NCBI RefSeq assembly: GCF_003231495.1
Contig: NZ_PQWO01000003.1
Span: forward strand, 180,001 to 212,000
Direction: 5' to 3'
Length of the DNA: 32,000 bases
Source of the DNA: Acaryochloris thomasi RCC1774
GTDB lineage: Bacteria; Cyanobacteriota; Cyanobacteriia; Thermosynechococcales; Thermosynechococcaceae
Part shown: in pieces, positions 2,798-31,627 of the stretch
Position numbering within the stretch: the stretch's first letter is position 1
Layout of the letters: each line of letters opens with the position of its first letter
Position numbers and translations under genes: made by a program
Notes under the pieces: model-generated
What the model saw: only the letters and a program-made list of their open reading frames with translations
What the model was told of the DNA's origin: nothing
Databases searched by the model: none

Positions 2798-3337
2798 ATG
2801 GCTCAAGTCTCTGGATCCGCTGATGTGCCCGATATGGGCCGTCGTCAATTTATGAACTTTTTAGCGTTCGGCGCTGTGACAGGCACGGCTATCGGCGGCC
2901 TGTACCCTGTTGTTCGATACTTTATCCCACCTTCAAGTGGTGGATCGGGTGGCGGCATCAACGCAAAAGATGCCCTCGGTAACGACATTGTTGTCAGCGA
3001 GTACACCGCCTCTCACCCCGCAGGCGATCGCAACCTAGCCCAGGGACTCAAGGGTGACCCAACCTACGTAATTGTGGATGAAGACGATTCCATTCGCAGC
3101 TACGGCCTCAATGCAATCTGCACTCACCTGGGCTGTGTTGTGCCTTGGAATGTGGGTCAAGACCGGTTTATCTGCCCCTGCCACGGTTCTCAGTATGACA
3201 ACACCGGTAAAGTGGTTCGTGGTCCCGCACCTCGATCCCTAGCCCTTGCCCATGCCGACGTCGTTGATGACAAGCTGGTCTTTAGTACGTGGACAGAAAC
3301 AGACTTCCGTACCGACGAAGATCCTTGGTGGGCCTAG
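2798..3337 (+). CDS. petC: cytochrome b6-f complex Rieske iron-sulfur subunit
   Basis: It has the Rieske 2Fe-2S boxes [10 protein letters not shown] and CPCHGSQY, an N-terminal TM anchor and the typical 179-aa length. It sits directly upstream of petA. Confidence 0.95.
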
Positions 3338-3426
3338 GCGCACAGGTAAGTTTCAGAACTTTCTAGCAGCGAGAGTTCTGACATTTTATTTTTTTGCTGA
3401 TTCCTTTGATTTGAGTTTGACTGATA

Positions 3427-4386
3427 ATGAAGCGAAGCTTTTTACCCATAATCACTCGGACGGGCCTTAGTTTCTTGAGTGCGCTCCTTGTCTGCCTTGG
3501 CGGCATCGTCGCACTACCCAACGTAGCTCAGGCTTATCCCATCTACGCGCAGCAGGCCTACGACAGCCCGCGCGAGGCCACGGGTCGGATCGTGTGCGCG
3601 AACTGTCACCTGGGGGCCAAACCGACTAAGGTGGAAATTCCTCAGGCAATTCTGCCCGACACCGTATTTGAAGCCATTGTCGAAATCCCCTACGACACTG
3701 ACGTCCAGCAGGTTCTAGGTAACGGAGAGTTAGGGCCGCTCAACGTGGGTGCGGTTATTGACCTGCCCGAAGGCTTCAAGCTAGCGCCTGAAGAGCGGAT
3801 TCCCGAAGAAATAAAAGAAAAAACCACCGGTCTCTTCTACCAGCCGTACAAAGCTGGCGAAGACGGAACCTACGTGATTGGTCCAATCTCTGGCGCTGAT
3901 CACCAAGAGATTGTCTTCCCGATTCTGTCTCCTGATCCTAAGACTGACCCCAATGTTCACTTTGGCAAGTATTCCGTTCATGTCGGCGGCAACCGAGGCC
4001 GAGGTCAGATTCAGCCAACCGGTGACAAGACTAACAACGCAATCTACACGGCTTCTGTCGCGGGCCAAATCACCGGCATTTCCGCTGGAGACTCCGGTGC
4101 AACGGTAACCATTGCTGCGGAAGATGGCGGTACCGTCACTGAGACCATTCCAAATGGACCGCAGATCATTGTTTCTGAAGGTGAGGATATCGCGGCAGGC
4201 GCACCACTCACCAACGATCCTAATGTCGGCGGCTTTGGTCAAAAAGATGCCGAGATCGTGCTACAGAACCCCACACGGATTAAGTGGCTGATGGCTTTCT
4301 TTGCAGCCATTATGATTTCTCAAGCCATGCTGGTTCTGAAGAAGAAGCAGGTCGAGCAAGTTCAAGCTGCAGAGATGAATTTCTAG
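3427..4386 (+). CDS. petA: cytochrome f precursor
   Basis: The signal peptide ends AQA|YPIYAQQAY, giving the mature N-terminal Tyr. It has the CANCH haem-binding motif and a C-terminal TM anchor WLMAFFAAIMISQAMLVL. Confidence 0.95.
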   Translation: MKRSFLPIITRTGLSFLSALLVCLGGIVALPNVAQAYPIYAQQAYDSPREATGRIVCANCHLGAKPTKVEIPQAILPDTVFEAIVEIPYDTDVQQVLGNGELGPLNVGAVIDLPEGFKLAPEERIPEEIKEKTTGLFYQPYKAGEDGTYVIGPISGADHQEIVFPILSPDPKTDPNVHFGKYSVHVGGNRGRGQIQPTGDKTNNAIYTASVAGQITGISAGDSGATVTIAAEDGGTVTETIPNGPQIIVSEGEDIAAGAPLTNDPNVGGFGQKDAEIVLQNPTRIKWLMAFFAAIMISQAMLVLKKKQVEQVQAAEMNF

Positions 4387-21562: not shown

Positions 21563-23974
<2,412 letters not shown>

Positions 23975-24127: not shown

Positions 24128-24184
24128 AAATCCTTAAACTTACGCATTGAGGTGGGGTTTAGCGCGTCTCCGGAGGAATCATCG

Positions 24185-24610
24185 ATGCAGCAAACGGCAG
24201 ATAGAATTGTTCAGCAAATGAAGTCGAAGGGATTGCGGGTAACGCCCCAACGCTTTGCAGTCTATGCCCACTTACTGGCGCGTTCGGACCATCCGACGGC
24301 AGAGCAGATTTCAAGTCATCTGAATCAAGACGTACCGACCTCTTCTCAGGCAACTGTGTACAACTCGCTCCAGGCCCTGCGAGAGGTGGGACTGGTGCAA
24401 GAGGTTCTCTTGGAAGAAGGAGTTTGCCGTTATGATGCCAACATTGCCCCTCACCACCATTTTCGATGTCAGTCCTGCGGTGTAATTGAAGATATCGCCT
24501 GGGAAAAGCTCCAGAATTTAGAATTCAAGGGGCTGCGCTCAGGATTGCAGGTAGAGAATTATGAGATCACCGTGCGTGGATATTGCGATTGCTGCAGCCC
24601 TAGAAGGTAA
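24185..24610 (+). CDS. Fur family transcriptional regulator, PerR-like
   Basis: It has the winged-helix N-terminus RVTPQRFAVYAHLL, the HHHF metal site, and two CxxC pairs (CQSC, CDCC). It is divergent from katG. A GGAGG SD precedes the ATG at 24185. Confidence 0.8.
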   Translation: MQQTADRIVQQMKSKGLRVTPQRFAVYAHLLARSDHPTAEQISSHLNQDVPTSSQATVYNSLQALREVGLVQEVLLEEGVCRYDANIAPHHHFRCQSCGVIEDIAWEKLQNLEFKGLRSGLQVENYEITVRGYCDCCSPRR

Positions 24611-28282: not shown

Positions 28283-28462
28283 CTACGACCAAGCCAAAAC
28301 AGCAAACAACACCAAAAAGAACCCCAGCATCGCTAGGCGGCCGTTCCAGAGCTCTGCATTGCGGGTCCATCCCCACTTCCATGCTTCATGATGCTCAACG
28401 GCTGCAGCCTCCACGACAGAATTTGACCTGGGATTGGCTTGGGTGGATAAGTTAGTGTACAT
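28283..28462 (-). CDS. hli: high-light-inducible protein (HLIP/Scp, one-helix CAB family)
   Basis: Not on the ORF track because it is 59 aa. My translation is MYTNLSTQANPRSNSVVEAAAVEHHEAWKWGWTRNAELWNGRLAMLGFFLVLFAVLAWS. The chlorophyll-binding motif AELWNGRLAMLGF is present. Confidence 0.8.
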   Translation of the reverse strand: MYTNLSTQANPRSNSVVEAAAVEHHEAWKWGWTRNAELWNGRLAMLGFFLVLFAVLAWS

Positions 28463-28628
28463 GAAGCAACTCTTAAACTGCAGTAGAAAGACAAAATCGG
28501 CAACAATTGCGGCAGCAGCTAAGCTGACACCGAAACCGCTTAAACTATCTTAACAAATTTATGTAAACTTGCTTACCCAGCGCCAAGCGTCGAACACGGA
28601 AGCAGAGATTAGTGCATTGACATCAGAT

Positions 28629-28748
28629 AAAGATAAACCCCTAGCCGTCTGCTTGGCTAAGGGTTTGGTGGGGTTGCTTAACCGTGGGGGTACACTGCTA
28701 AGCGTTATCTACAATTTAGCCTCCACTTGTGAAGAAGTCGGGAAAAAA
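28629..28748. repeat. 120-nt structured repeat, copy 1 (slightly diverged)
   Basis: Begins aaagataaacccctagccgtctgcttggctaaggg and ends gaagaagtcgggaaaaaa. Relative to copies 2 and 3 it has one stem mismatch and a 1-nt indel. Confidence 0.9.
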
Positions 28749-28869
28749 TCAGCCCATCTAACAGTGCACGTATTCATCAAGACTATTTAGTGGATGACAT
28801 CAGGCAATACAGTAACTGAAATCAATATTGGCAAAATGAAGAACTACCCCAGCTCAACGGACTACGGCT

Positions 28870-28990
28870 AAAGTTAAACCCCTAGCCGTCTGCTTGGCTA
28901 GGGGTTTGGTGGGGTTGCTTAACCGTGGGGGTACACTGCTAAGCGTTATTTACTAATTTAGCCTCCACTTGTGAAGAAGTCGGGAAAAAA
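28870..28990. repeat. 120-nt structured repeat, copy 2
   Basis: Identical to copy 3 over 120 nt. It has a 12-bp perfect hairpin aaacccctagcc / ggctaggggttt. Confidence 0.9.
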
Positions 28991-29007
28991 CGGGCAGAAC
29001 AAGAGAG

Positions 29008-29127
29008 AAAGTTAAACCCCTAGCCGTCTGCTTGGCTAGGGGTTTGGTGGGGTTGCTTAACCGTGGGGGTACACTGCTAAGCGTTATTTACTAATTTAGC
29101 CTCCACTTGTGAAGAAGTCGGGAAAAA
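29008..29127. repeat. 120-nt structured repeat, copy 3
   Basis: Identical to copy 2. It is separated from copy 2 by only 17 nt. Confidence 0.9.
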
Positions 29128-29272
29128 GCCAAGCCTTGCAAATCGAAATTGATACTGAAGCAACCTTCAGATTGTTCTAAATGCATAGAGTCAATCAATA
29201 ACGGTCTATTTTGGTGAAAACGACTATAATTAAAATAGTCAAAATTTAACCTAGCCATAAAGGTATTGAGAC

Positions 29273-30232
29273 GTGTTTACTGCTCTTCGTTCGTCGGACA
29301 CTGCGCTGCCCTTAGACTTAGTCTCAGCAATTCAAGAACTCAAGCGCGAGCTCAACGCCGTAGTTTTAGCTCACTATTACCAAGAGTCTGAAATACAGGA
29401 TGTTGCGGATTACATCGGTGACTCCTTGGGATTGTCTCGACAGGCAGCCAGCACCGATGCCGATGTGATTGTCTTTGCTGGCGTTCACTTCATGGCGGAG
29501 ACCGCGAAGATTCTCAATCCAAATAAGCTAGTACTGCTGCCGGATCTAGAGGCGGGTTGCTCTTTGGCAGATAGCTGCCCTCCCGATCAGTTTGCAGCTT
29601 TTAAGGCCGTTCACCCCGACCATTTGGTGATCTCTTACGTCAACTGCACTGCTGCGATTAAAGCAATGAGCGATATTATCTGTACTAGCTCTAATGCCGT
29701 ACAAATTGTGCAGCAAATTCCTGCAGAACAGCCCATTATCTTTGCCCCCGATAAAAATCTGGGTCGGTATGTGATGGCTCAGACCGGACGAGATCTGCTG
29801 CTTTGGGACGGAAGCTGTATTGTGCATGAGACTTTTTCTGAACGTAAGCTTATCGATTTAAAAGTTCAGCATCCTGAGGCAGAGGTTGTGGCCCACCCTG
29901 AATGTGAACCGACAATTTTGCGCCATGCCCATTTTGTGGGGTCGACAACAGCACTGCTCAACTACACGCAGCAAAGCCCCAAACAGGCGTTTATTGTGGC
30001 GACTGAATCCGGCATTTTGCATCAGATGCAGAAGCAGGCTCCAGGGAAAACCTATATTCCCGCCCCGCCAACACAGAATTGTGCCTGTAATGAATGTCCC
30101 TATATGCGCCTGAACACTCTAGAAAAGCTTTATACGGCCATGAAGGAACGCTCCCCTGAGATTACTTTGCCTGAAGAGGTGCGTGTTGCGGCTCTAAAAC
30201 CAATGGAGAGAATGTTAGAAATGAGTGCTTGA
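29273..30232 (+). CDS. nadA: quinolinate synthase
   Basis: 319 aa with NadA blocks [21 protein letters not shown] and the C-terminal CxxC-containing CNECPYM. GTG start. A TATAAT lies at 29225-29230 upstream. Confidence 0.9.
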
Positions 30233-30299: not shown

Positions 30300-30381
30300 T
30301 GCGGATGGCGAGAATCGAACTCGCAAGGCTTACGCCACACGCCCCTCAAGCGTGCGTGTCTACCAATTCCACCACATCCGC
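30300..30381 (-). tRNA. tRNA-Leu(GAG)
   Basis: 82-nt cloverleaf built by hand: acceptor GCGGATG/CATCCGC, anticodon stem CACGC/GCGTG, loop TTGAGGG, long variable arm, T-loop GTTCGATTC. CCA is not encoded. Confidence 0.9.
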
Positions 30382-31553: not shown

Positions 31554-31627
31554 GGGCTTGTAGCTCAGTGGACTAGAGCACGTGGCTACGGACCACGGTG
31601 TCGGGGGTTCGAATCCCTCCTAGCCCG
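31554..31627 (+). tRNA. tRNA-Arg(ACG)
   Basis: 74-nt cloverleaf: GGGCTTG acceptor, D-arm GCTC/GAGC, anticodon stem CGTGG/CCACG with loop CTACGGA, T-arm GGGGG-TTCGAAT-CCCTC. There is one U-U mismatch in the acceptor stem. Confidence 0.85.

Follow-up and report, generated by a model that had tools for sequence, protein, structure and literature searches.

Three tandem units of 120 nt are located between the hli and nadA genes of Acaryochloris thomasi RCC1774, a unicellular, non-heterocyst-forming cyanobacterium, within the 32,000-nt stretch of DNA that was analysed (the window; contig NZ_PQWO01000003.1, positions 180,001 to 212,000, here numbered from its first letter), and the analysis described below indicates that these units are very likely minus-strand genes for small RNAs (sRNAs). 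The hli gene (HLIP; 28283-28462, minus strand; Pfam Chloroa_b-bind) is encoded on the same strand as the predicted sRNAs and downstream of the array, 166 nt beyond the tail of the first copy, with a gene for pterin-4a-carbinolamine dehydratase (Pfam Pterin_4a) beyond it, while nadA (29273-30232, plus strand; Pfam NadA) is divergent from the array. The NadA, PerR and Pterin_4a proteins encoded in the window each show 100% identity to their counterparts in A. thomasi RCC1774. The gap from the hli start at 28462 to the nadA start at 29273 comprises 810 nt. A repeat search of the window located the units at 28629-28748 (copy 1, nearest hli), 28870-28989 (copy 2) and 29008-29127 (copy 3, nearest nadA), which bears out the three near-identical units of about 120 nt that had been recognised in a previous reading of the DNA (the sequence-only reading); the array positions and the spacer of 121 nt given there hold, while copy 2 was found to end at 28989 and the second spacer to measure ~18 nt. 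Copies 2 and 3 are 100% identical over 120 nt, and Tandem Repeats Finder reports this pair with a period of 138, 1.9 copies and 100% matches. Copy 1 differs from them by about three substitutions and a 1-nt indel when gaps are allowed; a figure of 80% for this copy stems from an ungapped comparison. Copies 1 and 2 start 241 nt apart, and the sequence between them (28749-28869) holds either ~100 nt of unrelated inserted sequence or a decayed unit.

Viewed on the plus strand, units 2 and 3 open with a perfect 12-bp hairpin, AAACCCCTAGCC-N8-GGCTAGGGGTTT, as had been claimed for each unit, and copy 1 carries it with the G-to-A change also described earlier. The hairpin pattern and a 33-nt core gave no match in 100 shuffles of the window. 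Similarly, the earlier description of the gap as lacking a credible open reading frame (ORF) is supported, as the sole ORFs in it, of 73 amino acids (over copy 1) and 55 amino acids, match no Pfam family and are both disrupted by indels in relatives; a coding reading was rejected on these grounds. Moreover, a 1-nt indel within the conserved linker of the predicted RNA (CCA-CC vs CCACCC) excludes coding on either strand.

The array is shared with relatives, defined here as contigs encoding a NadA protein 83-97% identical to that of A. thomasi. Five lineages carry full-length copies between hli and nadA, three in the locus designated L002, two each in L003, L008 and L032, and four in L007; a sixth, L033, has a partial copy at the end of its contig. 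The gene order Pterin_4a, hli, array, nadA is common to the lineages, the hli side having been read in L003, L007, L008 and L032, so that both synteny and a variable copy number, for which the sequence-only reading had suggested to look, are found in the relatives. The start-to-start spacing of the units is 138-142 nt in all lineages, with the single exception of A. thomasi copies 1 and 2. As judged from relatives that keep 2-4 copies at the same spot, the RNA array is almost certainly functional.

Each unit is predicted to encode an RNA of ~77 nt on the minus strand. The gene of copy 3 is placed at 29008-29085 (covariance-model match 29002-29084, 100.2 bits), that of the identical copy 2 at 28870-28947 (match 28864-28946, 99.8 bits) and that of copy 1, in which one pair of the terminator stem is U·G, at 28629-28706 (match 28623-28705, 99.2 bits). 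Folding of single minus-strand sequences yields two hairpins, with z = -6.5 for the 76-nt core of copy 2 and z = -5.7 for copy 1; the fold of the unit on the plus strand has z = -2.1. The 5' stem-loop (helix 1, 10 bp; GCUUAGC-A-GUG / loop UACCCC / CAC-G-GUUAAGC) occupies 29055-29082 in copy 3, 28917-28944 in copy 2 and 28676-28703 in copy 1. A first C-rich tract, ACCCCCAC, lies in and beside its loop (29063-29070, 28925-28932 and 28684-28691 in copies 3, 2 and 1, respectively), and a second one, AACCCCACC, forms the single-stranded linker that follows (29046-29054, 28908-28916 and 28667-28675). The linker leads into the terminator hairpin of 12 bp with an 8-nt loop (29014-29045, 28876-28907 and 28635-28666), which in copy 3 is followed by the tail UUUAACUUU to ~29008. 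Both tracts are candidate seeds: ACCCCCAC is invariant in 12 of 12 distinct RNAs, AACCCCACC is invariant across lineages with a 1-nt C indel directly 3' of it (AACCCCACC(C)AA), and both are unpaired in the minimum-free-energy fold, in line with the exposed C-rich tracts that had been proposed before.

The second hairpin has the features of an intrinsic terminator on the strand predicted to be transcribed, namely a GC-rich stem (12 bp with 6-7 G·C pairs) and a U-rich tail (UUUAUCUUU or UUUAACUUU, with U-richer tails in relatives). Two of the hairpins, in copies 1 and 3, were called by a terminator scan, and solely on the minus strand, which agrees with the intrinsic terminator previously assigned to this strand. 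The RNA of ~70 nt predicted in the same context is right as to its strand, and its length becomes ~77 nt when the element TAnnTT discussed below is taken as the -10 element. When the distinct unit sequences are aligned, between-lineage identity shifts abruptly from region to region, with 0.29 far upstream, 0.86 for a 17-nt window, TTCCCGACTTCTTCACA, consisting of a 16-nt block and one additional base, 0.55 in the spacer after this upstream block, 0.85-0.93 in the RNA body and 0.48 in the tail after the hairpin. The C tracts are invariant while the stems drift, which is the pattern expected of seed regions. It is therefore with good confidence that we regard a C-rich, two-hairpin RNA of ~77 nt, read from the minus strand, as the predicted functional molecule.

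The two-hairpin structure was evaluated on 12 distinct RNAs, corresponding to 264 pair cells, of which 99.6% are standard pairs, compared to at most 49.6% when the partners were slid by 1-3 columns. In helix 1, all cells of the 10 pairs (100%) are paired, pair 8/25 occurring as G-C, G-U and A-U, and in helix 2, the terminator, 99.3% of the cells are paired and three pairs show compensatory changes. Changes on both sides were found in four pairs (two from C-G to U-A, one from A-U to G-C and one from G-C to A-U), and seven further pairs vary on one side. RNAalifold, to which the structure was not supplied, predicted the identical structure. As the sequences are related, shuffle counts do not represent probabilities, and weight is given instead to the slide control and the compensatory pairs. 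Thus, folding, compensatory change and consensus prediction all agree with the structured units suspected in the sequence-only reading. The same cells also discriminate between the strands. On the minus strand, 251 cells are Watson-Crick pairs, 12 are G·U and one is of another kind; read on the plus strand, the same positions give 251 Watson-Crick pairs, no G·U and 13 mismatches. Each of the 12 one-sided changes, drawn from at least eight different pair/lineage combinations, leaves a G·U pair when read on the minus strand and would leave A·C when read on the plus. Together with the terminator calls on the minus strand only and with a nadA motif that is located downstream of the array and is kept without it (see below), this asymmetry settles the question of the strand as minus.

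Comparison of the copies indicates how the array may have evolved. In L003, L008, L032 and L007, the terminator of the copy nearest hli combines a stem of the CCUUUGGCC or CCUCUAGC type with the loop GAGCAGAU, which in L003 reads GCGCAGAU. In contrast, the copy nearest nadA has the loop AAGCAGAC and an CCCCUAGCC stem in L003, L008 and L032, and the nadA-side copies of L007 have kept the CCCCUAGCC 5' arm with the loop AAGCAGAU. Hence, at least two paralogues are older than the split of L003, L007, L008 and L032. Subsequent changes in copy number came about as entire units of ~140 nt were duplicated, namely copies 2 and 3 in A. thomasi, 2-4 in L007 and 1 and 2 in L002.

The distribution of the family appears to be narrow. 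A pattern scan of ~186,000 species-representative genomes gave real matches only in two metagenome-assembled genomes (MAGs) of Thermosynechococcaceae, at one locus each, and these loci, L018 and L022, are the same as L003 and L008; the remaining 21 of the 23 genome matches to the loose pattern are due to chance. In the metagenome collection, the strict pattern found nothing, and the 42 loci returned by the loose pattern are all chance matches without a homologue among them. Three cyanobacterial chance matches lie in coding-like sequence, and the rest score at most 19 bits with the covariance model. The unit had no match in plasmid and phage collections, and the covariance model detected no extra copy in the window or in the other loci scanned. 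In the scans as made, the array therefore shows no copies at other loci, by which the sequence-only reading would have recognised a mobile repeat. In A. marina, no array is present upstream of nadA, which resides in a different context next to SepF, and a locus that was reached through a Pterin_4a homologue belongs to an unrelated organism and has no array. In L001, whose NadA is 91% identical, an insertion-sequence transposase is located directly upstream of nadA, and hli and the array are not on that contig; ORFs matching DDE_Tnp_1 and DUF4096 occupy 3034-3788 of this rearranged locus. As far as could be tested, the putative family occurs only in the A. thomasi clade, at one locus in each genome.

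Upstream of each predicted RNA, the conserved block TTCCCGACTTCTTCAC (16 nt, consensus TTCYCnnnTTCTTCAC) is found on the minus strand at 29109-29124 in copy 3, 28971-28986 in copy 2 and 28729-28744 in copy 1. The hexamer TTCACA, which the sequence-only reading had combined with TAAATA into a weak promoter, is part of this longer block. The combination itself, TTCACA-N17-TAAATA (N16-TAGATA in copy 1), is indeed present, and its spacing is kept in most units; the TAAATA box (29085-29090 and 28947-28952 in copies 3 and 2; TAGATA at 28706-28711 in copy 1), in contrast, has a between-lineage identity of only ~0.60, with variants such as TCACAT, TCAGTA and TAGACA. Eight nucleotides upstream of it lies the element TAnnTT (here TAAATT; 29093-29098, 28955-28960 and 28713-28718 in copies 3, 2 and 1), whose positions T1, A2, T5 and T6 are invariant in 16 aligned unit sequences from all lineages, and which agrees with TAnnnT, the form of the -10 element in cyanobacteria. 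We consider TAnnTT the better candidate for the -10 element: it is invariant, and an RNA started from it would have 2-4 nt ahead of the stem, so that no part of the conserved hairpin would be lost. The alternative, TAAATA, is only ~60% conserved, and with it the RNA would begin within stem 1, in its 5' arm. With TAnnTT as -10, the conserved block would extend from roughly -39 to -24, which does not correspond to a canonical -35 box, and it is possible that the block is a binding site for a transcription factor. Inspection of the unit promoter by eye revealed neither an NtcA-type site (GTA-N8-TAC) nor a palindrome of the Fur/PerR type, nor a direct repeat that would pass convincingly as HLR1, and the DIF1 motif (TCCGGA) occurs four times in the window and not once in 28600-29150.

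On this basis, a mechanism may be proposed. Each unit would be transcribed on its own, towards hli, from the TTCYCnnnTTCTTCAC block and TAnnTT. The resulting RNA of ~77 nt would present UACCCC(CAC) on the 10-bp 5' hairpin, followed by the linker AACCCCACC(C)AA and the 12-bp GC-rich hairpin, whose U-rich tail would end transcription. The exposed, invariant C-rich tracts would be the working parts of the molecule, pairing in trans with G-rich sites (GUGGGGG or GGUGGGGUU-like) in or near the ribosome-binding regions of mRNAs, which may alter translation or stability of these mRNAs. Two to four sibling copies may provide a higher dose or a faster response, the position of the upstream block near -35 would be compatible with factor-dependent (stress-induced) transcription, and the constant location just upstream of hli gives a hint of light or oxidative stress. 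The proposal of trans action is based on the short RNA with its own terminator, the invariant exposed C tracts in loop and linker, and the presence of several siblings. By analogy to LhrC (PMC4132741) and CcsR1-4 (PMC8034643), multicopy sRNAs whose C-rich motifs in loops and linkers bind G-rich Shine-Dalgarno regions by base pairing, we lean, with some reserve, towards sibling trans-acting sRNAs that act by base pairing through C-rich seeds; when this mode of action is blended with the existence of minus-strand sRNA genes into one judgement, the combined reading appears reasonably probable.

The search for targets covered the 32 kb of the window. The best match in a translation-initiation region was GGUGGGGUU at 24151-24159, within the perR 5' untranslated region (UTR; perR ATG at 24185), a perfect 9-nt complement of the linker. 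The energy of this duplex is no better than that of many sites in coding regions. Another candidate, hli itself, was rejected, since its GUGGGG(N)U match derives from the codons of W-x-W-G-W and the third position of the glycine codon varies (GGA, GGG, GGT). A number of observations speak against the proposal as it stands. The perR site was also rejected as a target, as GGUGGGGUU is missing from the perR leaders of L035 and L036, the former belonging to the same MAG as the sRNA-bearing L002. The usual Shine-Dalgarno sequence, GGAGG, is not complementary to an uninterrupted run of C, so that targets would have to offer unusual G-rich sites. A scan for sigma-70 consensus promoters called none in any unit, including the pair of boxes suggested in the sequence-only reading, and neither promoter model consists of a conserved -35/-10 pair at canonical spacing. 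The covariation statistics are modest with only 12 distinct and related sequences, and A. thomasi was not returned by the genome scan despite three perfect matches in the window, so that the statement of a single locus per genome covers the two MAGs.

Further conserved elements flank the array. On the plus strand at 29209-29231, a 23-nt motif, TTTTGGTGAAAACGACTATAATT, with a perfect TATAAT inside ends ~40 nt before the nadA start. This motif is kept at every locus of the A. thomasi clade (L001, L002, L003, L007, L008, L032 and L033) within otherwise non-conserved intergenic DNA, and A. marina has a near-match, TTTTTGGTAAAATCAACTATAATT, at ~2935-2957 of L005; the conserved part upstream of TATAAT could be an operator for an NAD-related regulator. 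Downstream of nadA are genes for tRNA-Leu(GAG) (30300-30381, minus strand) and tRNA-Arg(ACG) (31554-31627, plus strand). Upstream of hli, ~80-95 nt before its start, the minus strand carries the direct-repeat-like motif TTGTTAAGATAGTTTAAG (28539-28556), which is conserved in L003, L008 and L032 and loosely resembles HLR1, the RpaB site of high-light-inducible genes. This suggests that, downstream of the sRNA array, hli may be driven by a light-responsive promoter of its own. Further away, katG, encoding a catalase-peroxidase (21563-23956, minus strand), is divergent from the Fur-family gene perR (24185-24610, plus strand), and AT-rich near-palindromes such as TCAGAATAGTTCTAACT are located between the two; the perR upstream regions of L035 and L036 carry similar TTAGAATAATTCTTA boxes. 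Such elements are probably sites of PerR autoregulation.

How the array acts may also be explained in other ways. The RNAs might bind and titrate a protein, such as a poly(C)/KH-type or another RNA-binding protein, as decoys in the manner of CsrB/RsmY. Two invariant, exposed C-rich motifs per RNA and several RNAs per genome would suit such a function, no conserved mRNA target was found, and the repeated loop motifs of LhrC have been noted to resemble protein-binding RNAs (PMC4132741). However, two motifs per RNA are far below the number in known decoy RNAs, no candidate binding protein is encoded beside the array in any lineage, and the characterised sRNAs with C-rich motifs cited here all pair with mRNA, so that titration is rather unlikely. 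About as doubtful is an action in cis, by which leaky terminators or promoters of the units would set the read-through into hli, or the RNAs would be antisense to a long nadA leader. It would account for the position of the array, which shares the strand of hli, directly precedes this gene and is opposite in orientation to nadA wherever the upstream gene could be read, and NsiR1.1, which is antisense to the hetF 5' UTR, provides a precedent (PMC9045159). Yet a conserved motif belonging to hli itself lies between its start codon and the array, the promoter-like motif of nadA lies downstream of the array and is retained without it in L001 and A. marina, and neither the invariant C tracts nor a conserved 5' hairpin in every unit would be required for regulation in cis.

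The two readings that dispense with a minus-strand RNA are much harder to reconcile with the data. A structured DNA or RNA element acting on the plus strand upstream of nadA had been left open in the sequence-only reading, as the hairpins form on this strand, too, and the array is located upstream of nadA. However, on this strand each of the 12 one-sided changes in the stems would be an A·C mismatch, the fold reaches a z of only -2.1, no T-run follows the hairpin, and the nadA promoter motif, being situated downstream of the array, is kept in L001 and A. marina without it; we therefore consider this role very improbable. The same degree of improbability applies to a selfish or mobile repeat, resembling miniature inverted-repeat transposable elements or repetitive extragenic palindromes (MITE/REP-like), and to a recent neutral duplication devoid of function, at which the identity of copies 2 and 3 and the copy number varying by lineage might hint. 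Against these readings stand the single locus in each of the two matching, related species-representative MAGs, the absence of plasmid or phage copies, terminal inverted repeats and target-site duplications, the purifying selection and compensatory changes, and an array that predates the split of lineages with NadA identities down to 83%. Of the functions considered, sibling sRNAs acting in trans appear the most likely.

With the array, a little-studied cyanobacterial branch, comprising the chlorophyll-b-containing A. thomasi and uncultured relatives from stromatolite and other metagenomes, would gain a new family of sRNAs. Its comparative support is strong and its taxonomic range narrow, and the extent of the genes, their strand and structure, the candidate seeds and a candidate regulatory block are defined. 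If the link to hli and light stress is true, the sRNAs would add a post-transcriptional layer to photoprotection. In practical terms, the covariance model and the alignment could be used to seed an Rfam family, and coordinates are now at hand for three unannotated genes. At gathering thresholds, Rfam 15 detected only the two tRNAs in the whole window, and a search of 28450-29300 at E<=10 gave three snoRNA matches at chance level (12-17 bits); the view that the unit does not belong to a named RNA family is thus upheld even at this permissive threshold. Full-text literature searches found no paper on sRNAs of A. thomasi. By its absence from Rfam and from the papers searched, the predicted array RNA is a new family, but of a familiar kind of regulator.

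Among cyanobacterial sRNAs, Yfr1 is a short RNA in which two hairpins flank a conserved single-stranded, pyrimidine-rich motif, a layout that recurs in the array RNA. However, the array does not contain the Yfr1 signature ACUCCUCACAC even when up to two mismatches are allowed, the linker being AACCCCACC(C)AA, and Yfr1 is not known to form tandem arrays. Among cyanobacteria, sibling sRNAs in tandem are rare, and the examples found are NsiR1 of Nostocales and a repeat array in Trichodesmium (PMC6596454). In Nostoc sp. PCC 7120, NsiR1 is encoded in 12 tandem copies with individual promoters (PMC9045159). The two systems have in common a tandem array of near-identical cyanobacterial sRNA genes, with RNAs of ~60 nt for NsiR1 and ~77 nt here, central copies that are identical while the outer ones diverge, and a position upstream of a protein-coding gene on the opposite strand. 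An own promoter for each unit may be a further likeness, which in A. thomasi would follow from the conserved block and the -10-like box, while a terminator is seen in each unit. In contrast, NsiR1 has a heterocystous host, hetF as a neighbour, 12 copies and DIF1 (TCCGGA) in its promoters, as opposed to A. thomasi and relatives with hli and nadA, 2-4 copies and an array from which DIF1 is absent. Neither sequence nor Rfam relates NsiR1 to the array, and NsiR1 is not known for C-rich seeds. The NsiR1-like organisation put forward in the sequence-only reading therefore holds for the tandem layout and, with a non-heterocystous host and no DIF1 motif, is to be understood as an analogy of layout only.

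Closer in the presumed mode of action are sRNAs from outside the cyanobacteria. The CcsR1-4 or 'cuckoo' RNAs of Rhodobacter sphaeroides are four homologous tandem sRNAs with C-rich loops that are induced by (photo)oxidative stress, and RNase E releases them by cleavage from the 3' UTR that follows a DUF1127 gene, which is transcribed from one RpoHI/HII promoter (PMC8034643, PMC4615179). As in A. thomasi, tandem sRNAs of a phototroph here consist of hairpins with C-rich loops resembling anti-Shine-Dalgarno sequences; unlike the CcsR RNAs, which are processed from one transcript, each unit of the A. thomasi array has its own conserved upstream block and terminator. The CcsR loop motif CCUCCUCCC is absent from the array units, and DUF1127 is absent from the called gene lists of all loci.

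In Listeria monocytogenes, lhrC1-4 are adjacent genes. LhrC1-5 carry UCCC motifs in loop A, in a single-stranded stretch and in the terminator loop, and LhrC base-pairs to a G-rich stretch that precedes the start codon of lapB (PMC4132741). The array resembles LhrC, RsaE and RoxS of the Firmicutes in consisting of multicopy sibling sRNAs with motifs of the kind that, in those systems, pair with G-rich sites in ribosome-binding regions. The differences are a different phylum, the motif (UCCC vs ACCCCCAC/AACCCCACC here), the lack of sequence homology and a regulation by LisRK that does not apply; moreover, the LhrC motif is also found in the terminator loop, whereas the terminator loop of the array, AAGCAGAC, is not C-rich. 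Nevertheless, C-rich motifs that are presented in a loop and in a single-stranded linker, and that are conserved over stems with 8 variable pairs, place the array RNAs with the LhrC/RsaE type as a functional class, not by homology. It might be speculated, as a tentative possibility, that the array is the first cyanobacterial counterpart of the sibling sRNAs with C-rich seeds known from Firmicutes and alpha-proteobacteria: a lineage-specific, factor-dependent system co-located with hli and induced by high light or oxidative stress, with TTCYCnnnTTCTTCAC as the operator of a transcription factor, that would control mRNAs with unusual G-rich initiation regions.

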